Positions 1,396 through 34,182 of a stretch of 64,000 nt of DNA are shown here, piece by piece (the stretch's first letter is position 1; each line of letters begins with the position of its first letter). Under the pieces are notes generated by a model. It made no database searches and had not been told where the DNA came from. It saw nothing but the letters and a program-made list of their open reading frames with translations. Source of the DNA: a virus. Lineage: Duplodnaviria > Caudoviricetes. The DNA lies in IMG/VR virus record IMGVR_UViG_3300020112_000918, positions 32,001 through 96,000 of that record; one strand, given 5' to 3'. The translations under genes were made by a program, and so were the position numbers.

Positions 1396-2298
1396 ATGAG
1401 CGTGTATCACGGATCACATAGAATAGCTGGATCTAATAAAAACGTTATTCGAGACAGTTTAACTCGTCAGGATACTACTTGGTCTTCTGCCAAAATTGCT
1501 GAAGAAATTCAAAATGCTAAAACATATGCATCCTACGCAGCTATGCTTGGAGAAAACTTTACTAACGGGGTTTTAACAGAACGCAACTTAGTAAATGTTT
1601 TAGGAGCTACTAGTGTTGCGGATGCTTTTGCTAAGCTGCAGGCAAAAACTTCTGTGGGAGATTTTACAAACTTAGGATTGGGAGACTATATTGATATTCC
1701 TTCTATCACTTTTGACGGTCAGACTTTGACTCATAATCCTTCTTATGAAAATCTTCGAGTTCAGATAATTGCGTTTGACTACTTTAAAAACTACTATAAT
1801 ACTACTCATCATGCAGTAATGCAGTTTAAGCATTGTCCTTTTAAAAAGGAAATTAACTCTGCAAACTCTAACGTAGGTGGCTATCCTGCTATGCCTATAG
1901 CAGGTTACTTGAGTACTACTTTTGGAGCAGGACTTGAAGCAGCTATAGGAATTAACTGTTTGTCTATTAAGCAGTTCTTCCAGAAAGCAGCTACTGCTTG
2001 GTCGAACTCTACAGGATACAAAGTATTTTTACCTACAGAAAATCAGCTGATTGGACACAAAGGTTCTTCTACAGTAGCTACAAATTTTGTTTCCTATGAA
2101 CTAGGTCAGTTCCCTTACTACACAATTAATCCTAAGGGTCTTATGAAGAACTCTAATGGAGTACTTCACTACTATTGGACAGCTTCTCCGTTGTTTGCTG
2201 TCTCGTATCGCTTTGCTTACGTGGGCGACAGTGGTCGCGTGTACGACGGCAGTGCTAATGATGACGTTATCGGTGTTGCTCCAGTTTTCTGTATCTAG
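1396..2298 (+). CDS. DGR1 target protein, C-type lectin fold (DUF6273-like), probable receptor-binding/tail tip protein
   Basis: C-terminal YYWTASP...FAYV...GVAPVFCI; 3' end is the variable repeat matching TR at 2826-2921. Confidence 0.9.
   Translation: MSVYHGSHRIAGSNKNVIRDSLTRQDTTWSSAKIAEEIQNAKTYASYAAMLGENFTNGVLTERNLVNVLGATSVADAFAKLQAKTSVGDFTNLGLGDYIDIPSITFDGQTLTHNPSYENLRVQIIAFDYFKNYYNTTHHAVMQFKHCPFKKEINSANSNVGGYPAMPIAGYLSTTFGAGLEAAIGINCLSIKQFFQKAATAWSNSTGYKVFLPTENQLIGHKGSSTVATNFVSYELGQFPYYTINPKGLMKNSNGVLHYYWTASPLFAVSYRFAYVGDSGRVYDGSANDDVIGVAPVFCI
2189..2284 (+). repeat. DGR1 variable repeat (VR1)
   Basis: 96-bp ungapped match to TR1; 18 mismatches, all at TR adenines. Confidence 0.97.
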
Positions 2299-2317
2299 TA
2301 TCCAAAATCTTTAATCT

Positions 2318-2337
2318 GGGCTGCATACCTGCAGCCC
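2318..2337 (+). promoter_or_regulatory. DGR1 target-recognition hairpin/cruciform
   Basis: GGGCTGCA-TACC-TGCAGCCC: 8-bp GC-rich stem, 4-nt loop (GGTA = GRNA on bottom strand), just after VR/IMH. Confidence 0.85.
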
Positions 2338-2362
2338 TTGTAACACAGGTTGAACGAGGAAT

Positions 2363-2815
2363 ATGAGCGTACCAGTAAGAAAAAGAAATTTATCTAGCCT
2401 TGAGTTCTATAATACAGCAGTTACAATCTACAAGGACATTGTGTCTATCTTAGACAAACTGCCGAGAAAATTGGTAGATTCAACCAGTCACGAAGTAGAT
2501 AGAACTTACTTAATAGATTTCTATCAGAAAGCGTTTCTGAAAACTTATGAAGATATGATGCTGAATATTGATTTAGCAAATGAGATTTTCATAAGTGATA
2601 AAACTGCAGCCCAGTTTAGAAATAGAAGATTGAGTTACCAGGATACAGCTATCGCTATGTGTACTCATTTAGAAACTCTGGTAGAATTGCTTACAATGAA
2701 TTTTCCTAAAATCGTAGGAGAATTAGGGGTACTGTCTCAGAATCTGGAATTTGAGTTGTCTTTACTAAAAGGATGGAAAGAATACACTAAAAAGAAAAGA
2801 AAGGTGCTTGACTAA
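2363..2815 (+). CDS. avd: DGR accessory variability determinant (Avd-like four-helix bundle)
   Basis: MSVPVRKR..LEFY start, IDLANEIF..RRLSYQDTAI, C-terminal LLKGW; lies between target and TR. Confidence 0.85.
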   Translation: MSVPVRKRNLSSLEFYNTAVTIYKDIVSILDKLPRKLVDSTSHEVDRTYLIDFYQKAFLKTYEDMMLNIDLANEIFISDKTAAQFRNRRLSYQDTAIAMCTHLETLVELLTMNFPKIVGELGVLSQNLEFELSLLKGWKEYTKKKRKVLD

Positions 2816-2825
2816 AAATTATCGT

Positions 2826-2921
2826 CGTTGTTTGCTGACTCGAATAACTTTGCTAACGTGAACAACAATGGTAACGTGAACAACAACAATGCTAATAATG
2901 ACATTATCGGTGTTGCTCCAG
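2826..2921 (+). repeat. DGR1 template repeat (TR1)
   Basis: AAC/AAT-rich (13 AAY codons) copy of VR1. Confidence 0.97.
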
Positions 2922-3194
2922 ATTTAGATAAATATTTGATATCCCAATCTAGAGATCTTAAGTTGTTACACTTCAACTACAAAAAGTGTTGGGATTTTTA
3001 AATTTATTTAAAGGAGTCAAGAGTCCTGCTAGAAATAGCAAATCTTCGGTTTTGACATAAGAAAGTGGACGCTGCTTGCATGGTAGAAGCGTAAGCAAAC
3101 TTCTATTTCATACTTTCAAAATTATGCAGAGTGTAACTTAATTGCTAAAATCCTTCCTCTAGAAAGGATACTCTGTGCAAAACCTTTTTATTTT

Positions 3195-4286
3195 ATGACT
3201 TCTGAAGATCGACGAGAATTAAGATACCAGCGAAGAAAAGCTAAAAGAATTAAAGACCAACCAGATTTTTCTGAACTTTTAAAACCAGAAAATTTATACA
3301 ATTCCTACAAGCTATGCAGAAAAGGAACTTCTTGGAAAGCAGCTGTGCAACGCTATGGAAAACACTGTATACGAAATATTTTTGCTTCTATTGAAAAGCT
3401 AAAGAAAGGAGAACCAATTACAGAACCTTTCAATCTGTTTGAAGTTCAAGAGCGAGGACGTATCAGAGTAGTTATGAGCGTTCGTATAAAAGAAAGAGTA
3501 GTTCAGAAAGCCTTGCATGACTATATACTATTTCCTATTCTAAAACCTACATTAATTCCTGACTCGGGAGCTTGTATAAAAGGAAAAGGAATTTCTTTTA
3601 CGAGAAAACGACTTAAAGAGCATTTGCGCAGATTTTATAGGAAGACTGGAAATAATGAAGGCTACGTACTTTGTGTAGACTACTCGAATTACTTTGGCTC
3701 TATAAGGCATGATGTCTTGTTAAAGTTTTTATCCAAAAAGATTCGAGATGAACAGGTATTAAAGCTAGTAAAAGAAATTTTAGACAATTATAAAAAAATC
3801 GGCTTAGGACTAGGTAGTCAAATTTCTCAGCTATGTGCTTTATTTTATTTAAGTTCAGTAGATCACTTTGTGAAAGAAAAGTTGCGAGTAAAATATTATG
3901 GTCGTTATATGGATGACTGCTACTTAATAAGTGACTCAAAAGAGGAACTTAAGTATTGGCTTAAGGAAATTAGAAAGTTTAGTGAATCCGTTCTAGGACT
4001 AACTATAAGTTCTAGAAAAACTACTATTCAGAAATTAACAAATTTTAAGTTCATTAAGGGACACTACTGCTTATCTCTTACTGGAAAAATTAAAGTTTTT
4101 CCGGATAGGAAAACATTTTTAAGATTTAAACACAAATTCGTTAAAATGTTGAAAATGAAGTGTTCCGAAGAAATTTTGCTTCCTGTAGTGCAGAGCTGGA
4201 AAGGTCATTTAAAATATTTTAATTCTTGGAAAGAGAAGCAAGCAATGTTTAAGCTCTTAGGAACCTATTTAATTAAATCTAGCTAA
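3195..4286 (+). CDS. DGR reverse transcriptase RT1
   Basis: ERVVQ, DYSNYFGSI, GLGSQISQ (DGR-type GxxxSQ), RYMDD; MTSEDRRE..YQRR N-terminus. Confidence 0.95.
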   Translation: MTSEDRRELRYQRRKAKRIKDQPDFSELLKPENLYNSYKLCRKGTSWKAAVQRYGKHCIRNIFASIEKLKKGEPITEPFNLFEVQERGRIRVVMSVRIKERVVQKALHDYILFPILKPTLIPDSGACIKGKGISFTRKRLKEHLRRFYRKTGNNEGYVLCVDYSNYFGSIRHDVLLKFLSKKIRDEQVLKLVKEILDNYKKIGLGLGSQISQLCALFYLSSVDHFVKEKLRVKYYGRYMDDCYLISDSKEELKYWLKEIRKFSESVLGLTISSRKTTIQKLTNFKFIKGHYCLSLTGKIKVFPDRKTFLRFKHKFVKMLKMKCSEEILLPVVQSWKGHLKYFNSWKEKQAMFKLLGTYLIKSS

Positions 4287-4296
4287 GGAGAATAAG

Positions 4297-4701
4297 ATGG
4301 TTTACATTTGGAATAAAGATGAACAAGTAGTATTTCATACAGATAAAAAGTTTGCAGTAGAAGTAGAAAAACTCCCTGCTACGCCAGACTTAGAAATGTC
4401 TGAAGAAGAATTTTATGCAAAACAGCCTATCCGAATAGTAGACGGAAAGTTTACTTTTGGAAAAACTGAAGAAGAACTTTCTCAGGAGGAAGCTGCAGCT
4501 GTAAGAACTAAAAGAGATTATCTTATAAATGAAGTTCAATGGCGTGTAGACAGATACCTTGAACAAAAAGCTGCAGGAGAGACTACAGTAGATTCAGAAG
4601 CAAAGTTTAAAAAGATTTCTGCTTACATAAGAGCTCTGAGAGACATTCCTACTCAGAAAGGATTTCCTTTTGACGTTGTCTGGCCAACTCTGGAGGTCTA
4701 A
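4297..4701 (+). CDS. phage tail (fibre) assembly chaperone-like protein
   Basis: RTKRDYLI...YIRALRDIPTQKGFPFDVVWP motif; CCTATTT at 4264-4270 upstream. Confidence 0.8.
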   Translation: MVYIWNKDEQVVFHTDKKFAVEVEKLPATPDLEMSEEEFYAKQPIRIVDGKFTFGKTEEELSQEEAAAVRTKRDYLINEVQWRVDRYLEQKAAGETTVDSEAKFKKISAYIRALRDIPTQKGFPFDVVWPTLEV

Positions 4702-4896
4702 GTGTTCCTACTCAAGACTCAAGAAGACGCACAAACTAGTTCCTCGATAGGCTTGCCTCCTGCTAATGTTGGTGGCGTTTTTGCCCTCAATACAGGCTCT
4801 CCAGCTCCTAGAGAGGACTCGATCTCAAAGTCAGTTAAACTTTACCTCGATAAAAATAAAGTGCCTCAGAAGGGAGATTTCGGAGGGTCAAAATGA
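4702..4896 (+). CDS. hypothetical protein
   Basis: 64-aa ORF, GGAGG before GTG, coupled to neighbours. Confidence 0.45.
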   Translation: MFLLKTQEDAQTSSSIGLPPANVGGVFALNTGSPAPREDSISKSVKLYLDKNKVPQKGDFGGSK

Positions 4897-5246
4897 ATCC
4901 AGAACTTTTAGATACTGTAAGAATCCTGATGACAGCTGTAATGATCGTCTCTACAGAAACTATCGGGATTCTTCAGTGGCTTAAGAACTTCATGTCAGAC
5001 AAAGGCTCAAAAAGAAAGAGAAACGCTTTTATTGCTTTTTGTATCTTAGTTCCTTGTGCTCTGATGAACTCAACTCTTGTGTCAACCTTGGCTACGGCTA
5101 TATTTAATGTTATATTTCTTTCATTAGCAGTTGAACAGCTTGCTTATCAGACCATTGTAAATGGTATTCCAAAAATCATCGATGCGATGTTTGACAAGGC
5201 TGCTTCCTTTGCTTCTAAGAAAGAAGAAAAGGAGAATTTACAATGA
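4893..5246 (+). CDS. membrane protein, possible holin
   Basis: Two to three hydrophobic segments, charged C-terminus. Confidence 0.5.
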   Translation: MNPELLDTVRILMTAVMIVSTETIGILQWLKNFMSDKGSKRKRNAFIAFCILVPCALMNSTLVSTLATAIFNVIFLSLAVEQLAYQTIVNGIPKIIDAMFDKAASFASKKEEKENLQ

Positions 5247-5902
5247 TTATCTTAAATGAAGCATCTGGAATCCAGAAAGCACAGATAGGAGTTTCTTCTG
5301 AACACAAGAAAGACCCTGCAACAAATCGAGGATTTGGCTATCTCTCACTTGAATACAAAGTAAACGGTGTAAAGCAGAAAGCTCGTTTTTCTTTCGATGC
5401 AAAAACAGGAGTTGTCAATTTCACAGGAGAGCCATGGGACTGGATCAAGAGTGAAATAGCTAAACGACCTTACACTTCCGATGAAAAAGACTTTATGACT
5501 CTTCATGCGAAGTCTTATGCTCGGTTCGTTAAGGGAGCAAGATCTTGTTTCTTTAATGGAACTAAGTGGAGTCTTGGCTACGGTAGTCTTGACGAAGCTG
5601 CTTTGAAAAACAAGAGTAAGATAACAGCAGACATAGTAAACCAGTATTCTATGTTGGTATCTGTTAATCCGATTAATTCTACTTTTTCTTACAACCTGAG
5701 AGATCAGGCTCTGTCCCAGGAAATAGCAATTCCGTTTATTGAGAATCCAGCTTATCCTTACATGTTTATTCTGAGACCAGACAAGCAGGAAGAGTTTGAG
5801 CAGCTTTGCAAAAAATACTGCACCCGTTCTTCTTCTGGTTGGTTTACTGTGTCTAGAAGACCTTCTTCTATCGCAGTGGGCAAGAAAGTCTACTTAGTAT
5901 AA
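5243..5902 (+). CDS. hypothetical protein (possible internal head protein)
   Basis: 219-aa ORF, SD AAGGAG, MIILNE|A leader. Confidence 0.6.
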   Translation: MIILNEASGIQKAQIGVSSEHKKDPATNRGFGYLSLEYKVNGVKQKARFSFDAKTGVVNFTGEPWDWIKSEIAKRPYTSDEKDFMTLHAKSYARFVKGARSCFFNGTKWSLGYGSLDEAALKNKSKITADIVNQYSMLVSVNPINSTFSYNLRDQALSQEIAIPFIENPAYPYMFILRPDKQEEFEQLCKKYCTRSSSGWFTVSRRPSSIAVGKKVYLV

Positions 5903-5922
5903 AATCTTTATTCTTAAACATT

Positions 5923-5944
5923 AGCTCCCTTCGGGGAGCTTTTT
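5923..5944 (+). terminator. rho-independent terminator
   Basis: AGCTCCC-TTCG-GGGAGCT-TTTT. Confidence 0.85.
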
Positions 5945-5960
5945 ATTTGCCTATTTGTTT

Positions 5961-8900
5961 ATGGCAAATAATTTAACTGATGGCATGCCTGAGGGCTTGA
6001 CCTTTAAATCTGAAGAACACAAACAAGATCTCACTTACAAAGCTACAGAAGAAGCATTGAGACAATTTTTAAAGATTTCTTCTCAGCTCGGAACTCATAA
6101 TAAAGACCTTCAAGAAGAGATTAAAACTCTTGTCGGAGATCAACAGAAACTGTACAAAAGATTCGATGAGGAACAGGCTCAACGCAGATTAGATGCAAAG
6201 CTGCTTCGTGAAAAGGGTGCTTCCGACGAAGAGATTATTGCCTACTTGTCTAAAAGACAGGAAACTTACGAAAAAGACACAAAGGCTTTGTTTGACTCAT
6301 TTGGAGATCTTCACAGAACTCTTGAAGGCTGGATTGAAGAAGATGAAAACCTTTCTGGTGGAGACAGAGTCCTTTTAAGAAAACAGCTTGAGACTTTCCA
6401 AAAGTCTTACGACCTGGATGAGCAGCTCAAGGCTGAAGCCGAAAGAAACGAAAAGAAACGAAACTCAATCCTCGAAAACATAGCAGAAAGTACTAAGGGA
6501 ACTTGGAAAGAAGCTCTTGAAAGTGGTAAATCTGAAAGAAAAGACCTGTTCGGTTCTTTTGCTTCTTCTCTGCTCGGTCCTCTTCGTGTTATTGCAGACC
6601 CTCTGACCAAGGTTGCCACAGGTAAGACAACTAGAGAAATCGCAGGAGACATTTTCGAGAAATGGACTTCAAAAGAGGACAAAGAAGATGAAGATAAGGC
6701 TGCAGAAAGAGACCTTGAACTCGAGACAGCTCTTTCATCGGCTCAACCGCCTTTAATTTCTTCTGTAGACCAGATAGCTAATCTTATCGAGAGTGACTCT
6801 CCTGAAGGACTTCTATCTCCAGAAGATATGAGAACTACGTCAACTGAAGAACTTCCTGTGTCTGCTTCTGTAAACAACGAAGGAATTCTGGAAAGAACAA
6901 CTCCTGTAGAAAACGACCTTTTACGTAAGGGTGGAATTGTCGGAGCAGCTGCTGTCTTCTTAGGAAAAGAAATTCGTAAGCTGGGTGAAGGAATTGAAGA
7001 CATCGACGTAGATGGAGATGATGAGGGATTCCTCGACAAAATTTCTGGAGGTAAGTTCTCAAAGACTCTTGCCAAACTCGCTCCTACTCTTGCTTCAGCT
7101 GCAGGAGTTGCTGCCGTTGCTGCAGTTCCTATTGCTATGCTCGTAGGTGGAGCTAAACTTCAGGAAAGAGATACTGAAGATGCTAAAAAGTATGCTGAAA
7201 AAGGCGAATACGGTCGAGCAGTAGAAACTGCTTGGCTTGGAGATAGAGAAAGACTCACTGAAGAAAATGCCAATGCAGAACTCGGAAGAGCAACTGGTAA
7301 AACAGCTCTGCTTGCAGGAGGAGCTGCAGGTGTTACAGCCTTAGCTGCAGGAGGAGCTGCTGCCGGAATGTCCGCAGGAGCTGCAGCTGCTGCAGGAGGT
7401 GCAGGACTCTTAGGTACGGGGCTTGCTGCTGCGGGAGCAACTGCAGGAGCTGTATTCCCTCCAGTTCTCATAGCTGCTGCGATTGCTGCAGCTGCAACAG
7501 TTGTAGCTAAGGGAGTTCAGGAAGCATATGAACTCGGATGGGATAAAAACCAAGCCGAAATTCAGAAAAACTTATACGATGTAATCTACTCAGAAGACTC
7601 TTCTGTTTGGGAGAAAGTTAAGGCTTCTGTCAGTTCAGACTGGAAAGAGTTTACAGGAACTATTGCTGGAGGAATCCGTGGAGTTACTGAAGAACTTGAG
7701 GGAGACGCAGCTATTGAATGGCAGAGAGGAATTGAGTATCTTGAAAAGACAGCTGCTGAAGGTAACGCAGAAAATGCTCGTCTTCTGACTATGATTCAGA
7801 GCGAAGAGTTTAAGTCTCTTTCTAAGAAAGACCAGGAAATGATGCTTAAATCAGAAGGACTTTTTGATGAGTATGAAACAATGCTCGATGAAGCTCAGAA
7901 CTCTTTCGGTGAAAGTATGCTTAACGGCTTACGAGCTACAGGGGACTTCTTTATCGGAGCTGTAAATACTAAGATGGAAGCCTATAACGGTAGAAAAGGA
8001 GCAGCAATAGATGCAAAACTTCTCAAAGAAATGGACAAAATTACGGGTGAAGATGTTGAACGCCTTAAAAATTCTACAGCGTATGCTGAAGCTCTTTCAC
8101 AGGGTAAAAATAAGAAGCAAGCAATGGAAGCAGCGTATCTCGAAGAAAAGCACAAAGAAAATGCAGCCCTCGGAATCCAAAAAGAAAACGGAGTCGCAGT
8201 AGGCTACAACGACTACGCTGTTACTTACTTCCAGAAAAAGAAATCTGATGAAGACTATCGTCAGACTCACGAATACGCTCAAGAAAAAGCTAAGCTCATG
8301 CAGAAAGGTTACTCTTCAGAGGAAGCAGATTTAAAGGCTATTGAAGAGTACAACGAAATGTATGAACAGGCTCTAACTTGGCGACTTAAACAGACTAAGG
8401 ACTATCGTGACCACTATAAAAAATGTCTCAAAGAAGGAAAGTCTATGGCTCAGGCTGAAAGAGAAGCCCTCCAGGTAGCCCGTGAAAACAAATACAACAC
8501 GATGACCTATACTGAGATCGTTAAAGAAAAGTTCTCAGAAATGGGTAAGGCTATTAAAGAGACATTTACAAAAGTCGGAGATAAGATCAAAGACGTGTTC
8601 GGAGATGTAAAAGAAAAGATTGCTGACGGGTTCAACGCTTTTAAAGAATCTGAATTCGGTCAGGCTATCTCAGACTTTGTTACAGGAATCTGGACAAAGG
8701 TTACTGAATGGTTCGGTAAGATAGGTGACTGGTTCTCAAGTAAGTGGGACTCAGTGGTTGGAGGTCTGACAGATGCTAAGGACTGGGTTGTAGACAAAGC
8801 CACAGCTGCGGGTTCTTGGATAAGTGATACAGCTTCATCTGCTTGGTCAGGAATTACAGACTTCCTCTCAATTGATGACGGTATCGTCACAAAAGACGGA

Positions 8901-9146
8901 AAGGTTATTCAGCTTTCTCCAGATGACAACGTTTATGCTACTAAAAATATGCCAACCGTTGTGGGAGATGCAGACGCACAAAGAGCTATGCCTTCTATTC
9001 CTGCTCCACAGCCTGAGTTTACAGATAAGAACATTATTGCAGCTATTCAGGTTCTTACAGAAGTTCTAAAGGGCAAGAATATGTCTCCTGAGATTAATAT
9101 TCCGGACAATTCGACTGTAGCTTTTGATCAGTTCAGATCTGCTTAA
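5961..9146 (+). CDS. tape measure protein
   Basis: ~1060 aa helical; Ala/Gly-rich hydrophobic segments; W/F-spaced 11-aa repeats near C-terminus; start likely ATG 5961, 4 nt after CCTATTT. Confidence 0.8.
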   Translation: MANNLTDGMPEGLTFKSEEHKQDLTYKATEEALRQFLKISSQLGTHNKDLQEEIKTLVGDQQKLYKRFDEEQAQRRLDAKLLREKGASDEEIIAYLSKRQETYEKDTKALFDSFGDLHRTLEGWIEEDENLSGGDRVLLRKQLETFQKSYDLDEQLKAEAERNEKKRNSILENIAESTKGTWKEALESGKSERKDLFGSFASSLLGPLRVIADPLTKVATGKTTREIAGDIFEKWTSKEDKEDEDKAAERDLELETALSSAQPPLISSVDQIANLIESDSPEGLLSPEDMRTTSTEELPVSASVNNEGILERTTPVENDLLRKGGIVGAAAVFLGKEIRKLGEGIEDIDVDGDDEGFLDKISGGKFSKTLAKLAPTLASAAGVAAVAAVPIAMLVGGAKLQERDTEDAKKYAEKGEYGRAVETAWLGDRERLTEENANAELGRATGKTALLAGGAAGVTALAAGGAAAGMSAGAAAAAGGAGLLGTGLAAAGATAGAVFPPVLIAAAIAAAATVVAKGVQEAYELGWDKNQAEIQKNLYDVIYSEDSSVWEKVKASVSSDWKEFTGTIAGGIRGVTEELEGDAAIEWQRGIEYLEKTAAEGNAENARLLTMIQSEEFKSLSKKDQEMMLKSEGLFDEYETMLDEAQNSFGESMLNGLRATGDFFIGAVNTKMEAYNGRKGAAIDAKLLKEMDKITGEDVERLKNSTAYAEALSQGKNKKQAMEAAYLEEKHKENAALGIQKENGVAVGYNDYAVTYFQKKKSDEDYRQTHEYAQEKAKLMQKGYSSEEADLKAIEEYNEMYEQALTWRLKQTKDYRDHYKKCLKEGKSMAQAEREALQVARENKYNTMTYTEIVKEKFSEMGKAIKETFTKVGDKIKDVFGDVKEKIADGFNAFKESEFGQAISDFVTGIWTKVTEWFGKIGDWFSSKWDSVVGGLTDAKDWVVDKATAAGSWISDTASSAWSGITDFLSIDDGIVTKDGKVIQLSPDDNVYATKNMPTVVGDADAQRAMPSIPAPQPEFTDKNIIAAIQVLTEVLKGKNMSPEINIPDNSTVAFDQFRSA

Positions 9147-9170
9147 AAGGTCGCCGTAGAAAAACTGTTC

Positions 9171-9180
9171 GGAATTATAC
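9171..9180 (+). promoter_or_regulatory. GGAATTATA-type promoter for the downstream ncRNA
   Basis: Matches the GGAATTATAA(T) motif found upstream of several non-structural genes. Confidence 0.5.
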
Positions 9181-9185
9181 TGAAT

Positions 9186-9649
9186 GAGCATTAAAAACAA
9201 GCCTTGATTTTACGCAGAAGAGATCTGACACTTGGGTCAAGGCTGCTTAACCTCTTCAACAAGGGGTAACTTCTACAAAGAAAAACACTTACTAGTATTT
9301 CTGGCTCGGGACGACAAAGCGTGATGCTACTCCGTAGGGGAATACGCTAAGGCGAGACTGTGGTCTAGCGTTGTAATCGTGGGAAGCAGTTTATGACCCT
9401 GACGTGTAGGTGGAGGAGTGGTGAGGGGAATGAGTACGCCACGTAGAAGCGATCTGAACTTATCGATAAAGGTACCACGGGAAAAACGGTTCAGCGATTT
9501 TTCCTGCTCTGATGATGGCTCCGTAGCTTGAATCATGGGCAACCCTGTCTTTAGGAGACCACCTAACGCCAGAAGCAGTTAGGGACTTTAAGCCACTCGG
9601 CTAAGTAGCGTTTCCTAAGGTCGGGTCTGCTCTTCCGAATCCACCACTC
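9186..9649 (+). ncRNA. putative large structured non-coding RNA
   Basis: No credible ORF, raised GC, many helices (AGCCTTGA/TCAAGGCT, GGAAAAA/TTTTTCC, CCTAAC/GTTAGG, GAGTGGTG/CACCACTC), loop-loop complementarity. Confidence 0.6.
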
Positions 9650-9701
9650 TTGAGATTTCTTTCTTATCTAATTGAGTTCCTATTTTTGAGTGGAGGATTA
9701 A

Positions 9702-10355
9702 ATGTGGAAAAATCTAAGATTACTTTACCTACTTGGCTCTTTATTCTTGTTCTCGTTCTTGCCCTTGCAGGAATTGCATTCTCAGTCTACTCCGAGTATA
9801 ACTTTTACAAATTTAAACATGATGCAGCCACTCGGTATTCCGAACTTGAACAGCAGTATAAATTGGAATCTGCCTCTCTCGCAGCAGAACTGGACTCAAT
9901 TCGACTTCACGCTGATGAGCTTGAACGACTTATCCAGGGCGTTCAATCTGGAGTATCAGAACTCTCAGAACTTAATAGACAATCTACAGAGTCAGCTAAA
10001 CTTCTCGAATCTTCAAATTCTGTCATTGGAGTTATCTTTGGAGAGTACGCAAGACGAACTGCAAAGGTTACAGCAGAGCTTGAACAACTCACTCGAAACT
10101 CAACAAAATATGGACTCCCTAGCCGAACAGATGACAACGGAAACTAATGTTCTGAAAGAAGAAAATAAACTTTATAAGCGTAAGATTAAGAAACTCTGGA
10201 TATCTATTGGAGTTTCTTCTGGAGGAGCAGCTATAGGAAGCCCTCTAATTGTTGAAGGAATTCGAACAGACAATCAAGTGATGACTTGGTCTGGAATAGG
10301 AGTTCTTGGAATAACAGCTATTTTTGATATAGTTTACAACATCTTCATAGAATAA
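9702..10355 (+). CDS. signal-peptide/coiled-coil protein with C-terminal hydrophobic hairpin (spanin partner-like)
   Basis: ATG after same GGAGG; signal-like N-terminus, coiled coil, two Gly-rich hydrophobic C-terminal segments. Confidence 0.6.
   Translation: MWKNLRLLYLLGSLFLFSFLPLQELHSQSTPSITFTNLNMMQPLGIPNLNSSINWNLPLSQQNWTQFDFTLMSLNDLSRAFNLEYQNSQNLIDNLQSQLNFSNLQILSLELSLESTQDELQRLQQSLNNSLETQQNMDSLAEQMTTETNVLKEENKLYKRKIKKLWISIGVSSGGAAIGSPLIVEGIRTDNQVMTWSGIGVLGITAIFDIVYNIFIE
9704..10147 (+). CDS. N-terminal TM + coiled-coil protein (i-spanin-like)
   Basis: GTG start after GGAGG; hydrophobic helix then heptad pattern; upstream of endolysin; nested in another frame of 9702-10355. Confidence 0.55.
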   Translation: MEKSKITLPTWLFILVLVLALAGIAFSVYSEYNFYKFKHDAATRYSELEQQYKLESASLAAELDSIRLHADELERLIQGVQSGVSELSELNRQSTESAKLLESSNSVIGVIFGEYARRTAKVTAELEQLTRNSTKYGLPSRTDDNGN

Positions 10356-10366
10356 GGAGAAAAGAA

Positions 10367-10774
10367 ATGGACACAAAACAGTTTGTAGACAAGTATCTTG
10401 GAACTAAGGTTGACGCAGACGGATTTTATGGAGCACAGTGCGTAGACCTTTTCCGTCAGTTCAATAGAGAAGTTTTCGGCTTTCCTCACACAGGAGGAGT
10501 AGACGGAGCTAAAGATTTGTATGAACTTTACGGTAAACTTCCAGAAGAAAAGAAATACTACGAGCAGATTCGTAAAGAAGGAACTATTCCTCTCGAAGGA
10601 GATATCGTAGTCTTCGGAAAAACTACTAAAAACCAATTCGGTCACGTAGCTATTGTTTTATGGGCTTCCAGAAAGACTATGGTTGTTCTTGAACAGGATG
10701 GTCTGAAACAGGATGGAGCAAAAATCGTAGCTCGTGACTATGACAATGTTCTGGGATTCTTACGTAGGAGATAA
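10367..10774 (+). CDS. CHAP-domain endolysin/amidase
   Basis: DADGFYGAQCVDL (catalytic Cys), GHVAIV (His), LEQD. Confidence 0.9.
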   Translation: MDTKQFVDKYLGTKVDADGFYGAQCVDLFRQFNREVFGFPHTGGVDGAKDLYELYGKLPEEKKYYEQIRKEGTIPLEGDIVVFGKTTKNQFGHVAIVLWASRKTMVVLEQDGLKQDGAKIVARDYDNVLGFLRRR

Positions 10775-10776
10775 AC

Positions 10777-11382
10777 TTGCCTAAAAAGATTCAGAACAAC
10801 TGGACGTTGCGTAAGCTGATCCAGAACACGTATGCCCATCAGTATTCTCGAACTCGCTTTGCCTATAAGCTAAGAGATATGGTAAAGGTCATACGTGTTG
10901 AACAAGTCTCTGTTTACAATGGAAAAGACCCTGGAAAAGCCCGAACAAAATACGTCATCACGACTCGTTCAACTCCTCAGTACTATCCTTACTACACTAA
11001 GAAAGATGCTTGGGGAAGAACTAGACAACGTCAGACACGCTACCATCACGAATACGCAGTTACTATTCAGATGGATACTCTTTCTCTAGACGTTCCGTTT
11101 AAGGGCAGAGTAGGTTCAATAGGAGCTTGGGATTTTTCAAAAAGAGGTTCCCCTATTCGTTTACCTAACGGAAAAGTCAAAGAAGGAACTAACTACCAGA
11201 AAGGAATTAACGCAGACTTCTGGTTTAGATGTTCTTGGGTGTGGCAGCAGGAAGGAATTCTTTTCGGTAAGAACTATGCAAAAGGTGCTCCTGTAAAGGT
11301 TAATCCTAACAGAATTGTTTTTGCTCCAAAGCACTTCTTAGCCGTAGTTCAGTACCTTATGGAAAGGGGAATTTTACACTAA
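10777..11382 (+). CDS. hypothetical basic protein
   Basis: 201-aa ORF, SD AGGAG with TTG start. Confidence 0.65.
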   Translation: MPKKIQNNWTLRKLIQNTYAHQYSRTRFAYKLRDMVKVIRVEQVSVYNGKDPGKARTKYVITTRSTPQYYPYYTKKDAWGRTRQRQTRYHHEYAVTIQMDTLSLDVPFKGRVGSIGAWDFSKRGSPIRLPNGKVKEGTNYQKGINADFWFRCSWVWQQEGILFGKNYAKGAPVKVNPNRIVFAPKHFLAVVQYLMERGILH

Positions 11383-11395
11383 GGGAGCAAAATAG

Positions 11396-11671
11396 ATGGA
11401 AAACTATTCAGACGTCTTAGATAAAGAAGCAATCATTGAGAGAGTATTTACTCAGGAGTTTGACTTCGGAGATTACTCTCTTGTAAGAGTAAATAATCAC
11501 TGGGAGATCCAGTTTGAAGATGAAGAGGGAGCTCAGTCAATTGTTATTCAGCCAGATGACTTTGATGAAAAAGATGAATTCCAGTTTATGATTGGTACAA
11601 AAGAATACACGTTCTCAAAATCTTCTTTTCTTAAAGTTGAAAATTTCTGTTTGGAGAATCACCTTATTTAG
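11396..11671 (+). CDS. hypothetical acidic protein
   Basis: 91-aa ORF with SD. Confidence 0.6.
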   Translation: MENYSDVLDKEAIIERVFTQEFDFGDYSLVRVNNHWEIQFEDEEGAQSIVIQPDDFDEKDEFQFMIGTKEYTFSKSSFLKVENFCLENHLI

Positions 11672-11682
11672 CCTATTTCTTT

Positions 11683-12066
11683 ATGGCAGTATATGTAGAT
11701 TATGACCTTACAGGAACTTCAAACCAACAAGGTAACATTCCCGTTTTAACAGATCAAGAAGCTCTCTCTAATGCAATCAAGCTCTGGCTATGTTCATTCA
11801 GAGGGGAAAGACTCTACCGTCCCAATAAAGGAGGATGGATTGTCGGTTCTCTTATGAAGCCAATGTCAGAAGACCGTGCCGTTGAAATGGAAAAGAATAT
11901 CAAGATAGGACTGAGAACAGACTTTCAGCCCTCTATTGAAGTAACTAGATGTAAGGTTACTCCTGACTACGAAAATAGTTGTTACTACGTTCACGTAGAA
12001 GGAAGATGTCCTGCATTCCGTTCATCTGTATACTCCGATGTAACTGTAAAACATCTGCACAGGTAG
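11683..12066 (+). CDS. baseplate wedge subunit, gp25-like
   Basis: EALSNAIKLWL...GERLYRPNKG motif. Confidence 0.85.
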   Translation: MAVYVDYDLTGTSNQQGNIPVLTDQEALSNAIKLWLCSFRGERLYRPNKGGWIVGSLMKPMSEDRAVEMEKNIKIGLRTDFQPSIEVTRCKVTPDYENSCYYVHVEGRCPAFRSSVYSDVTVKHLHR

Positions 12067-15634: not shown

Positions 15635-15659
15635 GGAAGCCTATTTAATTATCTTTAAA
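15635..15659 (+). repeat. 25-bp direct repeat copy 1 (contains CCTATTT)
   Basis: GGAAGCCTATTTAATTATCTTTAAA identical to 17274-17298. Confidence 0.9.
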
Positions 15660-15727
15660 AACAAAAGCCTTTCCTGCTACCAACAAGAAAGGCTTTCTAA
15701 ACACATCAAATAAAAGAGGTATTTGCT

Positions 15728-26075: not shown

Positions 26076-26126
26076 AAAAATTCTCCCTAAGAAAGTTGTA
26101 TAACTCAAATAGGGAGAATTTCGGCT

Positions 26127-26402: not shown

Positions 26403-26457
26403 GATGAGTACCTCATTTGTATAAAAATTAAAGATTAAAAAAAAATCTTTCCACCTT

Positions 26458-26589
26458 TTATAATTCCGGATTGTCTTCAGGAGGGGAGTCTTTTTCAAAT
26501 AAATTCAACCAAACAGCTCCTACTGCTCCGAAAATAAGAATAATGCTAAAAATGCCAAGACCTAAATACTGTAGAATTTTTACTATCAT
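26458..26589 (-). CDS. small membrane protein (43 aa, not in ORF track)
   Basis: MIVKILQYLGLGIFSIILIFGAVGAVWLNLFEKDSPPEDNPEL. Confidence 0.5.
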   Translation of the reverse strand: MIVKILQYLGLGIFSIILIFGAVGAVWLNLFEKDSPPEDNPEL

Positions 26590-26624
26590 AAAAACAAAAA
26601 TCCCCCACTACATAAAATAGTGAA

Positions 26625-27682: not shown

Positions 27683-27688
27683 TAAAAA

Positions 27689-27710
27689 TCCCCCTATGAA
27701 AATAGGGGGA
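27689..27710 (-). promoter_or_regulatory. hairpin combining terminator, CCTATTT promoter and RBS of the GIY-YIG gene
   Basis: TCCCCCTAT-TTTC-ATAGGGGGA-TTTTT-A-ATG on minus strand. Confidence 0.65.
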
Positions 27711-27740
27711 CTAAATTAGAGAATTACTTGTTTGCCTTTA

Positions 27741-29615: not shown

Positions 29616-29699
29616 GTTTTATCTCCTTAATTAAAGATTTGTTCTACTAAAGCGTGAGAAATTTCTTCACAGTTTAAATAGGTTTATAAAACAAAAAAT

Positions 29700-30332
29700 C
29701 TAGCAGGATTCAAACTTAGAGTAGTCATACTCTTCATAGTGAGTATGATAAAATTCTGTTTTAAAGATTTTAAAGAGATTAAATCTTTCTCCTACTTTAC
29801 ACTTATTTAAGTGATGGTAAAAAGGAACTTGATATGTTACAAAATCGTTAGGAGTACAATAGTTTCGAATAGTTTTAGCAAATTTGCTATATTTTTTCTT
29901 TGCAAAAGGATTTAAGAGGCAAGCAACACTTCCATAGGTTGTAACTTCATCTAGCTGTCCAAGTCTTGAATAAATATGAATCATAGACAAAACAGACATA
30001 GCTGAACCAAAAGACCAACCTCGAATAATTCTTTTGTAAGTAGGATACTTATGAGCTGCTTCACAAAATTTGTCAATAGGAGTATTTTTAGCAGAGGTGT
30101 AAGCACAAGCGTAGCCCTTAGTTGTCCAAACTTTCTTGCTGTCCAGTTTAAGGGTACAGGGTAAGAATCTAAAATTGTGCTCCCAGTCTTTATGTGAATC
30201 AGATTCTTCGTACTGAAGAATAATCTCTTTTGTTTCATGGTTAACCAAGACTATAAAGTCTATGTCTTCTCCTACTATTTCATAGTCTCGGAAAGTTTTT
30301 ATGTCATAAAATTTCTGTTGCTCTTGAGTCAT
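29700..30332 (-). CDS. class 3 lipase-like alpha/beta hydrolase
   Basis: GWSFGSA nucleophile elbow (GxSxG), TYGS, NDFVTYQVP, C-terminal His. Confidence 0.8.
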   Translation of the reverse strand: MTQEQQKFYDIKTFRDYEIVGEDIDFIVLVNHETKEIILQYEESDSHKDWEHNFRFLPCTLKLDSKKVWTTKGYACAYTSAKNTPIDKFCEAAHKYPTYKRIIRGWSFGSAMSVLSMIHIYSRLGQLDEVTTYGSVACLLNPFAKKKYSKFAKTIRNYCTPNDFVTYQVPFYHHLNKCKVGERFNLFKIFKTEFYHTHYEEYDYSKFESC

Positions 30333-30625
30333 TTACCTACCCCCACAAGATTTCCTTCTTCATCATAGCTGCGTTCTCTTAAAGTAGAAATCTCATCACG
30401 ACATCTCTGACGTTCTATAAGAACTTCAGCTGGAACATCTTTTCCGATTTCCTTAGCACGAATTGCATACCAGTCAGTGTCTTTTAGGTACTGCTCATCT
30501 TTTTCAATTAAATCAACATCTACTCTCTGCTGAGAAATTAAATGAGCTGCAACTTTTTCTTCTGTACTGAGTTCTTCAATGTCTGTTTTAGCAGAATTGA
30601 TTTTATAGCCAGGCTGATGAAACAC
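30329..30625 (-). CDS. tail fibre assembly chaperone-like protein
   Basis: YLKDTDWYAIRAKEIGKDVP.EV..ERQRCRDEI motif; start uncertain. Confidence 0.65.
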   Translation of the reverse strand: MFHQPGYKINSAKTDIEELSTEEKVAAHLISQQRVDVDLIEKDEQYLKDTDWYAIRAKEIGKDVPAEVLIERQRCRDEISTLRERSYDEEGNLVGVGK

Positions 30626-31910
30626 AGTTTTCTATATGAGATTTTCTTACATCTTCCTGGCAATTAATATCTCCCTGAACGTCTTCTACTTTAACAAAAT
30701 CAAAGATAGCTACATCGGGATTCTTAGTTGTTTTACCATCATAAAAAGTATTTTTACCTATTGAAGCTCCTACTATGAGAACAGGAACTCCAAGTATGTC
30801 TTGTATTCTGGTATGTTTTCTAGAGTCATAAGGCTTAACTACTTTATCTAGCTGCAGCAACATATCAGCTCCGTATATATGAAAAGTTTTATAAAGTTCA
30901 TCAAAATGATACTTTTGTCGGAATCTAGTTGCTTTACAAAAATCTAAAATTCCTTTATAAGAAGCAAGTGAGTGGTCTATTTTGAAGATTTCGTAATCTG
31001 TAAACTGAACGGTATTTTCAAGTGCTCCTTTATCTATTAAAGAACTACACAACCTTTGAATATTTCTAGCTGTGCGTCTTTTTAAGGTAGTCACAGAGTT
31101 TCCTTTAAAGTCTACAAAAGAACGATATCCTAAAGCCTGAACGCAGCTTCTTACACAAGCTAATCGATTTTTGGAAAGATTTAACTTGAGTTCCTCCTTC
31201 ATAAATAGGGGAATTTCTTTGCTAAATTTCTTTAAGTACTCTCTGTCATTAGAAAAGACATAAGTATCATCGCAGAATCTAACAAAATGAAGATGCCATT
31301 TATGCACTATCCAGAGGTCTAGCTCATTTAGATAAAGATTTCCTAACCACTGAGAAGTAAAATTTCCTATAGGAATATTAGTAGGACTGTTAATAGAGTC
31401 TATAATTTTGTCTAAAGTTCTTAATAAAGGAGGATCTTTAATCTTTTTACGAATTATTTCCTTCATCTTTTCATGATTTAATGAAGGATAAAACTTACGA
31501 GCATCTAGCTGAACGTACCATTTGTATTTACGAATGTACTCAACAATTTTGGCATGAGCTGCTTGAGTTCCTCTTCCCTTTATACAAGCAAAAGAATTGT
31601 CCTGCATAAGTTTAGCCCAAAACGGCTCAAGTACATTCATAATTGCATGATGTACCATTCTATCTGGAAAAACAGAAGTTGCATAAATTGTTCGCTCTTT
31701 TGGTTCATGTATGACTTTTATTCTATAAGGGCTAGGAGTGTATTCTTCATTTTTAAGAAGTCTTAAAACTTCATCTTCATAGTAAACATGATTTTCACCT
31801 ATCTCTTTTATTTCTCTATAAAAACCCTTGCCCAAAGTACACTTGTGGTAGGCTTTGGCTATATTTTCAGGTGTACAGATTTCTTCCCAAAAGCCAGTTT
31901 TTCTTTTCAT
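30603..31910 (-). CDS. DGR reverse transcriptase RT2 with C-terminal extension
   Basis: EPKER.I, FPDRMVHHAIM, LDARKFYPS, PIGNFTSQWLGNLYL, RFCDD, LGYR. Confidence 0.95.
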   Translation of the reverse strand: MKRKTGFWEEICTPENIAKAYHKCTLGKGFYREIKEIGENHVYYEDEVLRLLKNEEYTPSPYRIKVIHEPKERTIYATSVFPDRMVHHAIMNVLEPFWAKLMQDNSFACIKGRGTQAAHAKIVEYIRKYKWYVQLDARKFYPSLNHEKMKEIIRKKIKDPPLLRTLDKIIDSINSPTNIPIGNFTSQWLGNLYLNELDLWIVHKWHLHFVRFCDDTYVFSNDREYLKKFSKEIPLFMKEELKLNLSKNRLACVRSCVQALGYRSFVDFKGNSVTTLKRRTARNIQRLCSSLIDKGALENTVQFTDYEIFKIDHSLASYKGILDFCKATRFRQKYHFDELYKTFHIYGADMLLQLDKVVKPYDSRKHTRIQDILGVPVLIVGASIGKNTFYDGKTTKNPDVAIFDFVKVEDVQGDINCQEDVRKSHIENCVSSAWL

Positions 31911-32095
31911 TAGAATGCCTAAAAATAACGACTGTTCTTCAACTAAACTCTTAAAGGATTTTTCGATTCATTATCTACTAAATTATCTTTAAAACACTCT
32001 CGACTGTAAATTTGTCGTTTTATGAAACGTGCAGGTACAAGCTGTCAGTCTTATAAGTTTAAAAGCGGAGTGAGAGTTACTCCTCAACTTATGAT

Positions 32096-32212
32096 ACTCG
32101 GAAACAGCACGGAAACCAATGTTGTTGTTCAAATTCAAAGGAGAATTGTTCCAATTCAAACCACGAGATCCACAGTTATCACCATCGTTCCAATTCCCAC
32201 CCAAGTGAGCAC
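32096..32212 (-). repeat. DGR2 template repeat (TR2)
   Basis: 117-bp ungapped match to VR2; 10 AAY codons. Confidence 0.97.
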
Positions 32213-32333
32213 AAGGCACAAAAATGAATTTTTAGCAGCTACACCGAAGAACCGCACATAGCGAACAGCTAATACCTAAGAACAGCCGTTATTTTTATCC
32301 ACTCCTTTTACAGAATTTTGTTTTAACAAGGAT

Positions 32334-32397
32334 TGGGGAGCGCAAAGAACATCTGCCCCTGCGGGGCAGTTGTGCCTTGTGCTTTGCGCATTCCCCA
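32334..32397 (-). promoter_or_regulatory. DGR2 extended hairpin downstream of VR2
   Basis: Core CTGCCCC-TGC-GGGGCAG (32353-32369) inside outer pairs GCGCAAAG/CTTTGCGC and TGGGGA/TCCCCA. Confidence 0.8.
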
Positions 32398-32433
32398 CTA
32401 TTTTGCATTCCCCTGAGTTCCCCTCACTTAGTT

Positions 32434-34182
32434 TTACTTGTGCATTGACTCGGAAACAGCACGGAAACCAAGGCTGCTGTACAAATCCAAAGGAGAATTG
32501 CCCCAACTCAAACCACGAGAGCCACAGCCATCACCAACGTCCCAACCCCCACCCAAGAGAGCACGTTTACCCGCACCGAAGTAGTACTTACCCAGTACAT
32601 CACGCTTGTTAGCGTTAAAGTTGTCGGACCAAGTAGTAGAACCAGAAGCATCGTAGCTACTTTCACTAGACCACTGCCACAAAACACCTACGATATCCTC
32701 TAAACCGCAGTAAGAAATAATACGCTTATCATTTGTAGCCAAGTGCCCACTCGTAGTTACAGGGTCTATCGAACCTTTAATATTTACTCCCTGAGGAGCA
32801 CCCCTAGCTAAGTCGCCAAACTCGGCTATTGTAGGAAGTCTCATGCCTTGATAATGAAGCTGCTGCTCTCCGTCAAGACAGCCTAAAGCTGGAGTAGAAG
32901 CTCCATCAAGAATAGTTCCCCCATTTTTAGAAACCATTTTAAAGCTGTCATTAGGGTACTTACTTCCAGAAGCAGTAGTTCCTGTTGTCCAAATGTTTAA
33001 AGTTGCGTCTTTAGACATTAAATAAATTGAAGCCCAAATTCCTAAAGTAGGAGCGTAAGCAAAACCTTCTGGACAACAAACAGGTCTGTGCCATAAATCC
33101 CATACAGAGAACGGATGAATGTAGCCAGCCACTGCTCCTGAGAATGGATGCACTTCTGTAGTAGAGTAAACCTGCTCAGGAGTAACAGAAACACAAAGTG
33201 TATCAAATCCACCTATAATTCTTGCAGCCAAGGCTCCAGTAAAGGTCTGTTTATCAGAAGTAGAAATCTTAAACAGCCAGTTATCCTGATCTATGTAAAC
33301 TAAGTAAACAAAGTAACTAGTACCTGCTGCAAAAGCATCTCCGCTAACTAAGTTAGCTGCAGAAATTGTAATTTCATCATCTGAGTAGAAGATGTGACAA
33401 GTTCCATTATTTTCAAAAACAGGAATAGGAGTACCTGCTTTAAGTACGAGAGATTTCCAAGTAGAATCCCCTGCTGCAGCTAATTCCCAATTTTCTTCTG
33501 AACCTCTATAAGAGTAGTAGGTTCCGTTTGGACGTGTCTGACAAGCAGGGTACAAGAACTTACCAGATGAGAGTCTGTCATTAGCTGGATAAACAAGTCC
33601 TGCAAGTTTTTGAGATGACCAAGTAGACAGCGGAGAAGTTTCTTCATCTTGAATAAGCTCTTCATCAACGTCATCTATAATGTTGTAAAGAGTATTTGAG
33701 TCCTTAACAGGAATTGCATCAAACTGTTCTTTAGTACCTGACCAGAGAGTTGTGATACTTTCAGATTCTACTGAAACCTTTACCGAATAAGTAGTGGTAG
33801 AGTCTGCTGTAAGAGTTACAGAGTTTTCTGTTAAGTTCATAGTAGAATAAGAAACTTCACCTACTTCAAGATACTTAACAGTTAAAGCGTGGCTGGTGGT
33901 GTTTACAATCTTGATTTCATTTCCCTTAAAGGCTGTTACATCGGACATATCAAGTACAGCGTCTGCGTCACCTGTGAAAACAAGAACTGCATTTCGCTCA
34001 ATACGAGAAAGAGTTTCATCATGAGAAAACTCTACTGCTCTCTGAGCTGTAAAAGGCTTGATTATGTTGTTATTTGTTTCTACTGTAGAAAGAGAAACTA
34101 GAGGATCCTTTTGAGTGCCGAAAGGGGGAGTATAGTCTGGAATTCCTGGAACTGTTAAAGAGTCAAGAGTTAAGTCTATCAT
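32434..34182 (-). CDS. DGR2 target: tail fibre/Mtd-like protein with C-terminal FGE-type C-type lectin domain
   Basis: RLPTIAEF, GLEDIVGVLWQW, LLGGGW...GSR...GFRAV; tail-fibre motif WSGTKEQFDAIPVKDSNTLYNI. Confidence 0.9.
   Translation of the reverse strand: MIDLTLDSLTVPGIPDYTPPFGTQKDPLVSLSTVETNNNIIKPFTAQRAVEFSHDETLSRIERNAVLVFTGDADAVLDMSDVTAFKGNEIKIVNTTSHALTVKYLEVGEVSYSTMNLTENSVTLTADSTTTYSVKVSVESESITTLWSGTKEQFDAIPVKDSNTLYNIIDDVDEELIQDEETSPLSTWSSQKLAGLVYPANDRLSSGKFLYPACQTRPNGTYYSYRGSEENWELAAAGDSTWKSLVLKAGTPIPVFENNGTCHIFYSDDEITISAANLVSGDAFAAGTSYFVYLVYIDQDNWLFKISTSDKQTFTGALAARIIGGFDTLCVSVTPEQVYSTTEVHPFSGAVAGYIHPFSVWDLWHRPVCCPEGFAYAPTLGIWASIYLMSKDATLNIWTTGTTASGSKYPNDSFKMVSKNGGTILDGASTPALGCLDGEQQLHYQGMRLPTIAEFGDLARGAPQGVNIKGSIDPVTTSGHLATNDKRIISYCGLEDIVGVLWQWSSESSYDASGSTTWSDNFNANKRDVLGKYYFGAGKRALLGGGWDVGDGCGSRGLSWGNSPLDLYSSLGFRAVSESMHK
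32448..32564 (-). repeat. DGR2 variable repeat (VR2)
   Basis: 16 mismatches to TR2, all at TR adenines (T on + strand). Confidence 0.97.

Follow-up and report, generated by a model that had tools for sequence, protein, structure and literature searches.

Organisation of the two retroelements

The window analysed here comprises 64,000 nucleotides (nt) of a virus assigned to the Duplodnaviria and Caudoviricetes (IMG/VR record IMGVR_UViG_3300020112_000918, positions 32,001 to 96,000), and all coordinates below refer to the window unless another sequence is named. It carries two diversity-generating retroelements (DGRs), each of which has its own reverse transcriptase (RT), its own template repeat (TR) and a variable repeat (VR) in its own target gene. 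DGR1 lies on the + strand (1352-4701) and DGR2, approximately 28 kb away, on the - strand (34221-30329). The two RT genes are the only ones in the whole record to match RVT_1. The features of both elements are listed in their order of reading, with the basis of each assignment in brackets.

DGR1
1352..1363, + strand: promoter-like box, CCTATTTAATTA, upstream of target 1 (motif enrichment)
1396..2298, + strand: target 1, 300 amino acids (aa), DUF6273-like, receptor-binding type (sub-threshold Pfam and structural model matches)
2189..2284, + strand: VR1 (A-only mismatches to TR1)
2318..2337, + strand: hairpin with 8-bp stem and TACC loop (folding, conservation)
2363..2815, + strand: Avd-fold accessory gene, 150 aa (predicted fold and position)
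2826..2921, + strand: TR1 (repeat of VR1)
3000..3205, + strand: TR1-RT1 spacer RNA, Rfam RF03077, RT-2 RNA (cmscan)
3195..4286, + strand: RT1, DGR-type reverse transcriptase, 363 aa (RVT_1, phrog_1423, motifs, tree)
4297..4701, + strand: tail-fibre assembly chaperone, 134 aa (PF16778 at 2e-12, several PHROG tail-fibre assembly families)

DGR2
34221..34210, - strand: promoter-like box, CCTATTTAATTA, upstream of target 2, with CCTATTT at 34215..34221 (motif)
32434..34182, - strand: target 2, 582 aa, Mtd-like tail protein (Pfam, PHROG)
32448..32564, - strand: VR2 (A-only mismatches to TR2)
32353..32369, - strand: hairpin with 7-bp stem and GCA loop (position downstream of VR2)
32096..32212, - strand: TR2 (repeat of VR2)
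30603..31910, - strand: RT2, 435 aa here, C-terminally truncated (RVT_1, phrog_1423, motifs)
30329..30625, - strand: 98-codon remnant, beginning at a GTG, of a tail-fibre-assembly-like gene of 154 aa (weak phrog_4912 and phrog_27919, alignment with intact relatives)

Template and variable repeats

VR1 differs from TR1 at 18 of 96 nt and VR2 from TR2 at 16 of 117 nt, and every one of these mismatches falls on an adenine of the template (31 adenines in TR1 and 26 in TR2). The two templates are unrelated in sequence, and contain 13 (TR1) and 10 (TR2) in-frame AAY codons. Each VR ends 14 nt 5' of the stop codon of its target gene. At the 3' end of the first pair, VR1 and TR1 agree in their final 18 bases and diverge 1 nt past the annotated repeat. 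A search of the whole 133,795-b record returned exactly one VR per TR, with no further remote VR for either template.

The original prediction, made from the sequence of the window, had proposed these repeat coordinates along with the A-only mismatches, and recomputation reproduced both (18/18 and 16/16). The unrelated templates, the differing RT motifs, the AAY codon counts and the contrast between a 4-nt TACC and a 3-nt GCA hairpin loop, all part of the same proposal, were likewise borne out.

The promoter-like box CCTATTTAATTA stands 35-45 nt upstream of both target genes. Where 11 copies of its core, CCTATTT, would be expected in the window, 27 are present (approximately 2.5-fold), mostly just upstream of gene starts and in the orientation of the gene, and the box probably serves as a late promoter of the phage or combines a promoter with a leaderless start. 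The role of CCTATTTAATTA as a promoter is thus a putative one, suggested by enrichment and position. Examples of CCTATTT sites, upstream of many structural genes and often in the form CCTATTTAATTA or CCTATTTGTTTATG, are found at 1352, 4264, 5950, 9679, 11672, 34215, 48545 and 52136; that at 4264 is a CCTATTTAATTA box belonging to the DGR1 chaperone gene itself.

DGR1

RT1 matches RVT_1 (2e-15) and phrog_1423 (4.5e-79), carries the motifs LGSQISQ and YMDD (GRYMDD), and clusters with the RTs of other phage loci that bear TR/VR pairs. Upstream of it, the TR1-RT1 spacer is a full-length match to the RT-2 RNA family, scoring 74 bits in cmscan, where the gathering score is 40 (E 5.5e-15). The hairpin GGGCTGCA-TACC-TGCAGCCC lies 34 nt past VR1, has a folding energy of -10.1 kcal/mol (z = -4.4), and is identical in all relatives, including the IMG/VR relative G001 discussed below.

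No sequence family in Pfam, PHROGs or a PDB profile search matched the 150-aa open reading frame (ORF) between the hairpin and TR1. In related DGR loci, 38 homologues stand immediately 5' of the RT gene, and its AlphaFold model (predicted local distance difference test, pLDDT, 84.5) matches bAvd (4dwl_B, template modelling (TM) score 0.77) and the Avd chain of a DGR ribonucleoprotein (8ub7_C, TM score 0.78), both with probability 1.00. The S23/IVP-family bundles 2rld and 2gsc were also matched with probability 1.00. The product is a predicted Avd by fold and position only, a call made because of the conserved slot upstream of the RT together with the structural matches.

Target 1 scored 17.6 bits against Pfam DUF6273, under the cut-off of 23.5. 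In BFVD, its AlphaFold2 model matched tail-collar and receptor-binding proteins as well as DUF6273 proteins, at E values from 1e-13 to 1e-3; the best matches were unnamed phage proteins (1e-13), and those to DUF6273 proteins reached down to 7e-4. In related DGR loci, the gene that bears the VR is homologous to target 1. A Foldseek search of the model against the PDB gave no match. In comparisons with DGR targets of the C-type lectin (CLec) fold, the model reached Z 3.0 with TvpA and Z 2.7 with Lcl, the top PDB entry was the N-domain of 9qa6 (Z 8.0), and the part of the model that contains the VR has a pLDDT below 50. Taken as a whole, DGR1 is canonical and intact in this genome.

Two observations concern the surroundings of DGR1. 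The short-read Logan contigs L093 and L096 stop inside TR1, 306 nt upstream of RT1, as is to be expected of assemblies at VR/TR repeats or where the VR is heterogeneous. Upstream of target 1, positions 1-1382 hold three small genes, including a ferritin/rubrerythrin-like gene at 786-1283; these are kept in the ERZ940948 contig, and approximately 66 bp stand in their place in G001.

DGR2

Target 2 matches Phage_tail_C (7.8e-11), mtd_2nd (7.6e-7; 29.8 bits, over the cut-off) and the tail protein family phrog_11262 (3e-42). A match to FGE-sulfatase covers residues 490-576, which include the VR, at 20 bits, just under the cut-off; with mtd_2nd, this borderline match places target 2 in the C-type-lectin-fold class (Mtd/FGE). 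The original prediction had set an Mtd/FGE-like target 2 apart from a DUF6273-like target 1, and these matches agree with it.

RT2 matches RVT_1 (1.9e-17) and phrog_1423 (2.5e-84) and carries the motifs IGNFTSQ and FCDD (RFCDD). An ESM Atlas search with its C-terminal extension returned only unnamed viral clusters (<0.9). There is no avd-sized ORF between target 2, TR2 and RT2, nor room for avd, and the gene that follows RT2 matches tail-fibre-assembly PHROGs, not Avd. The 185-nt spacer between TR2 and RT2 matched no Rfam family even at E = 1. A hairpin, CTGCCCC-GCA-GGGGCAG, lies approximately 80 nt past VR2, its stem being kept in the related locus L083 with a GTA loop; a part in retrohoming is inferred for it. 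Between the chaperone-like gene of DGR2 and the tail sheath gene lies a gene with a class-3 lipase domain (29700-30332, - strand), which is conserved in relatives.

Independence of the two elements

RT1 and RT2 share 23% identity. A tree that included 65 relatives places them in two clades separated by a long branch, each with 100% support in the Shimodaira-Hasegawa-like approximate likelihood ratio test (SH-aLRT). The RTs are not duplicates, because of this low identity and their separate, fully supported clades; a recent duplication of one DGR was also considered for the elements as a whole and is ruled out by the RT comparison, the targets and chaperones being without significant similarity as well. 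Cross-talk between DGR1 and DGR2 appears unlikely, because their templates are unrelated and their 3' homing ends differ.

The central claim of the original prediction, two independent DGRs of different type, is thus supported, with each element aimed at a different tail-fibre-like protein. The placement of both enzymes in an RT tree, which had been suggested as a check, put them in distinct clades; the avd gene and the RT-2 RNA occur only in DGR1, and the templates have nothing in common.

Variation across natural populations

Activity was assessed by comparing assembled loci from different pig-gut samples. Twelve DGR1 loci contained 11 VR1 alleles, and 212 of the 216 VR/TR mismatches fell on a TR adenine. 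Eight of these loci belong to one strain, in which TR1 is identical, seven VR alleles are present, all 29 variable VR columns correspond to TR adenines, and none of 130 flank columns varies. Lineage-specific substitutions of TR1 at positions other than adenine are mirrored in the VR1 of the same lineage: the window has AAT-AAC, GCT and ATT at sites that read AAC-AAC, GTT and AAT in the L119 group. The presence of such changes in the VR1 of the window indicates that, once those substitutions had arisen, the TR1 of the window served as the template from which this VR1 was rewritten.

Similarly, 22 DGR2 loci contained 19 VR2 alleles, with 334 of 339 mismatches at TR adenines. Three variants of TR2 were found among the 22 loci, each invariant inside its group. 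Since the VR alleles differ almost only at TR adenines and the templates and flanks are constant, both DGRs have been repeatedly active in the lineage. For DGR2 this evidence of retrohoming concerns the lineage as a whole rather than the truncated element of the window. The original prediction had named a lack of VR variation across populations at one locus as a point against it, and A-site variation was found at both VRs.

Deletion in this genome and losses in relatives

Relative to the loci L099, L109 and G001, the window has a 331-bp deletion near position 30610, between the near-repeats CAGCCTAT and CAGGCTAT. At its junction (30603-30625), a shortened RT2 now runs into the interior of the gene that follows. 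RT2 consequently measures 435 aa instead of 474 aa: its C-terminal extension is missing 42 residues at the end, for a net loss of 39 aa. On the other side of the junction, the 154-aa chaperone-like gene has lost its start and approximately 56 codons. The full-length RT2 is present in all 22 relatives for which the locus was retrieved and in 12 of 15 among the cluster members listed, and no other copy of the exact truncated RT2 is on record. DGR2 may therefore be weakened or dead in this genome, though VR2 differs from TR2 only at A sites.

Two statements of the original prediction have to be amended accordingly. It had described a layout common to both modules, running from promoter through target and RT to a tail-fibre-chaperone-like gene; the box does precede both targets, but the chaperone-like gene of DGR2 is truncated here and its 98-codon GTG reading frame is a remnant. 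It had also stated that the phage runs two mutagenesis machines, a statement borne out for the lineage rather than for this genome, in which RT2 is 39 residues shorter and the chaperone-like gene decapitated.

The relative G001 is syntenic with the window across the whole interval, at 72-94% nt identity, and has suffered the reciprocal loss. At L089:3700-3715, which corresponds to 2428-4083 of the window, 1,656 bp are cleanly missing, and with them TR1, the initial 890 nt of RT1 and the greater part of avd. Despite the loss of RT1, G001 keeps target 1, the VR hairpin and an intact chaperone gene, and it retains an intact 474-aa RT2, TR2, and a VR2 with 11 A-only differences. Together with the RT2 truncation in the window, the loss of the DGR1 core in G001 shows that either element can evidently be lost separately. 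The DGR2 block (30613-33743) has 94% nt identity to G001, compared with 72-84% for the backbone, a difference that points to recent exchange or stronger constraint.

Assembly integrity and phage setting

When assembling phage genomes from metagenomes, there is the concern that stretches of two genomes will be joined, and the original prediction had named a chimera between the two loci as a possibility to be excluded. Both DGRs were found on one contig in three further independent assemblies from different studies (Logan SRR23253297_3474, ENA ERZ27297628:k141_113080 and ENA ERZ940948:k127_84597), at a spacing of approximately 26-30 kb; the last of these contigs (135,455 b) is circularly permuted with respect to the window. 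The assembly is therefore not a chimera.

Clustering at 90% identity gave 94 variants of RT1, 153 of RT2, 88 of Avd and 54 of target 2, and the named sources are pig-gut metagenomes. The genome size is probably 131-136 kb, because contigs of that length recur. The phage is probably virulent, since no integrase, nor any resolvase, was found in it. A megablast search against 50,697 phage records gave no nucleotide match. PHROG matches are those of a contractile-tail phage (a weak sheath, a gp6-type baseplate wedge and a tape measure); the only T4-type signals are this wedge, the weak sheath match and PHROG matches to clamp and clamp-loader, the PHROG matches being distant throughout, and for the putative capsid and portal the matches are weak or absent. 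The description of the phage as T4-like in the original prediction is not supported, given that there is no DNA match to deposited phages and that the PHROG matches are only distant.

Elsewhere in the window, the region 15660-17268 holds an HNH homing-endonuclease gene (15728-17287, phrog_3339) that is absent from G001 and flanked by CCTATTTAATTATCTTTAAA boxes at 15640 and 17279; this region is a mobile insertion. A transfer-messenger RNA (tmRNA) lies at 40320-40695 on the - strand (Rfam 88.5 bits, tag DNDYSMKAAA), and a tRNA-Leu at 39292-39371, also on the - strand.

Comparison with known systems

BPP-1 is a temperate 42-kb phage of Bordetella with one DGR, consisting of mtd with its VR, avd, TR, the Sp RNA and brt. 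DGR1 resembles it in the order of target with VR, hairpin, Avd-fold gene, TR, structured spacer and RT, as well as in adenine-specific mutagenesis, and DGR2 resembles it in having a target with an Mtd second domain and an FGE/CLec-type C-terminus. Unlike BPP-1, the phage described here has two RT-bearing DGRs in a genome of approximately 135 kb in which no integrase was found; its Avd1 has no sequence similarity to bAvd, its DGR2 lacks avd and has an RT with a C-terminal extension, and a tail-fibre chaperone gene follows each RT.

Several DGRs occur together in approximately 10% of DGR-bearing complete cellular genomes (Wu et al. 2018, PMC5758913); Trichodesmium erythraeum has two DGR RTs (PMC8867640) and DUSEL4 nanoarchaea have multiple DGRs (PMC4372165). 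The present phage resembles those cells in having more than a single RT/TR unit, with separate targets for each. However, some of the cellular copies are near-identical prophages, whereas here two divergent units are found in one virus and address two predicted structural proteins. Among phages, tentaclin phages use one RT for two targets (PMC10743442), and the crAss-like phage Lera has one RT with three TR-VR pairs (PMC12386605). These share with the present phage the diversification of more than one protein per genome and tail fibre or adhesin targets with a C-terminal VR, but they depend on a single RT, while here each target has its own RT and template, with an RT-2 RNA spacer in DGR1 and a spacer without an Rfam family in DGR2. 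The literature searched, whose coverage did not extend to subscription journals, yielded no account of a phage in which two DGRs each have an RT.

A census of 45 RT1-related IMG/VR contigs of at least 25 kb identified six with two RVT_1 genes. G030 (99,786 b, CheckV 100%) and G033, which represent one lineage, carry two complete adjacent DGRs with their own RTs, 29% identical to each other (in G030, locus L133, G030:C1:25000-43000, positions 5758-11823 of that locus). The first has a VR at 6050-6161 and a TR at 6261-6372, with 19 of 21 mismatches at A; it is avd-less and its RT belongs to the RT2 clade (36% identity to RT2). The second has a VR at 9693-9798 and a TR at 10510-10615, with 17 of 17 mismatches at A; its RT is of the RT1 clade, and an ORF occupies the place of avd. 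The RT clades are therefore paired as in the window phage, the avd-less element again being that of the RT2 clade, although the G030 cassettes are only approximately 4 kb apart and lie in an unrelated backbone. The G030 targets had no Pfam match, and no publication on G030 was found.

The large gut phage contigs G034, G036, G037 and G041 (81-126 kb) have their second RVT_1 gene far from the DGR. As a candidate second DGR, the second RT of G036-type phages (approximately 126 kb) was rejected, since no A-biased repeat occurs within approximately 7 kb of it; scans of L131 (G036:C1:47000-61000), L134 (G037) and L135 (G041), with G034 left out, detected no adenine-biased repeat near the second RT. 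These enzymes may be RTs of a different kind. With G030 also carrying two complete DGRs, the two-DGR arrangement cannot be regarded as unique; it is uncommon but recurrent in public data.

Interpretation and alternative explanations

We consider it highly probable that the window derives from a pig-gut lineage of contractile-tailed phages with two separate DGRs, each of which rewrites the VR of its own target. DGR1 would be read from a late-type promoter box through a target with C-terminal VR1, the hairpin, the Avd-fold gene, TR1, the RT-2 RNA spacer and RT1 to the chaperone gene; DGR2, without avd, would be read from its promoter box through the Mtd-like target with C-terminal VR2, TR2 and an extended RT of the other clade to the chaperone-like gene. 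By analogy with the Bordetella phage BPP-1, each RT would reverse-transcribe the TR-spacer RNA of its own element, making errors specifically at adenines, and the mutated complementary DNA (cDNA) would then replace the cognate VR. The result of this process is directly visible in the VR alleles of different samples.

Several points weigh against this interpretation. The truncation of RT2 leaves the present activity of DGR2 in this genome uncertain, and the 331-bp deletion behind it is itself read from assembled contigs. The differences between samples reflect activity over the history of the lineage, not a rate. Both targets are putative virion proteins, as predicted from sequence, and a C-type-lectin fold is only weakly indicated for target 1 by its model. 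Finally, the hairpin of DGR2 is unusually far from VR2 and may instead be a terminator.

The truncation also gives rise to the strongest rival explanation, namely that DGR1 alone works here and that DGR2 has only recently been inactivated and survives as a relic: the deletion would have destroyed either a C-terminal module essential to RT2 or the chaperone required for folding of target 2, leaving VR2 frozen. The 42 deleted residues belong to an extension that is 98% conserved in the 153-member cluster, the 154-aa gene is left without its start codon and approximately 56 codons, and loss of a DGR core is documented in the lineage by G001 (avd, TR1 and most of RT1). Nevertheless, the core of RT2 (fingers, palm and thumb, to approximately residue 340) is intact, the extension is not conserved across the clade, in which most relatives have approximately 340 aa, and VR2 shows no decay, all 16 of its differences being at A. 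A G specific to the TR2 of the window (AACGATGG) is, moreover, matched in its VR2. On balance we rate an inactivated DGR2 as a serious possibility, although at somewhat less than an even chance.

It is improbable that the two elements are not orthogonal but form one machine with two templates, in which the Avd of DGR1 also serves the avd-less DGR2, or RT1 with Avd copies both templates. The lack of an avd-sized ORF among target 2, TR2 and RT2 would fit such sharing, as would the G030 lineage, which likewise pairs an avd-less DGR of the RT2 clade with an RT1-clade DGR having an ORF in the avd position. Yet G001, without avd, TR1 and RT1, keeps a 474-aa RT2, TR2 and a VR2 with A-only differences. 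Avd-less DGRs are, furthermore, accepted members of the class, and standalone examples have been reported in phages such as the Zeta crAss-like phages (PMC12386605). The spacer RNAs differ, and neither the templates nor their 3' homing ends are related. Less credible still is a chimeric assembly joining two phages with one DGR each: metagenome contigs can be chimeric, and several Logan contigs do break inside TR1, but the three joint contigs with similar spacing (one of them circularly permuted), the synteny of G001 over the whole interval and the uniform GC content effectively refute it.

Beyond the existence of two separate DGRs, a broader proposal can be put forward tentatively, and we regard it as rather unlikely at present. 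A virulent phage would keep two non-interchangeable DGRs, one Avd-dependent with an RT-2 RNA and the other Avd-independent with an extended RT, in order to diversify two virion adhesins at once, and this pairing of RT clades would have been selected repeatedly in unrelated large gut phages, of which the present phage and G030 would be examples. If true, the repeated pairing would imply a two-receptor adsorption strategy with independently evolving specificities. In a similarly speculative vein, the original prediction had suggested that the two DGRs might serve two adsorption steps, in which case their diversities would multiply.

Significance

Each of the two elements alone is a standard DGR; what stands out is the dual, divergent and lineage-active pair in a probably virulent phage. 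The finding extends known biology and does not overturn it, given that cells with multiple DGRs are known and that a second two-DGR phage was present within 45 contigs. To our knowledge, DGRs are the only natural system of targeted protein hypermutation known in prokaryotes and their viruses. Two divergent, lineage-active DGRs acting on two predicted tail proteins constitute a natural test of the orthogonality of DGR machines, which could be of use in engineering parallel in vivo mutagenesis channels. The natural knock-outs, by deletion of the DGR1 core in G001 and by truncation of RT2 here, could reveal what each element contributes, from data and isolates that already exist. Pig-gut metagenomes contain the lineage in abundance, as the 94 and 153 variants in the RT clusters attest, and its paired DGRs bear on how lytic gut phages follow changing host surfaces with more than one adhesin.

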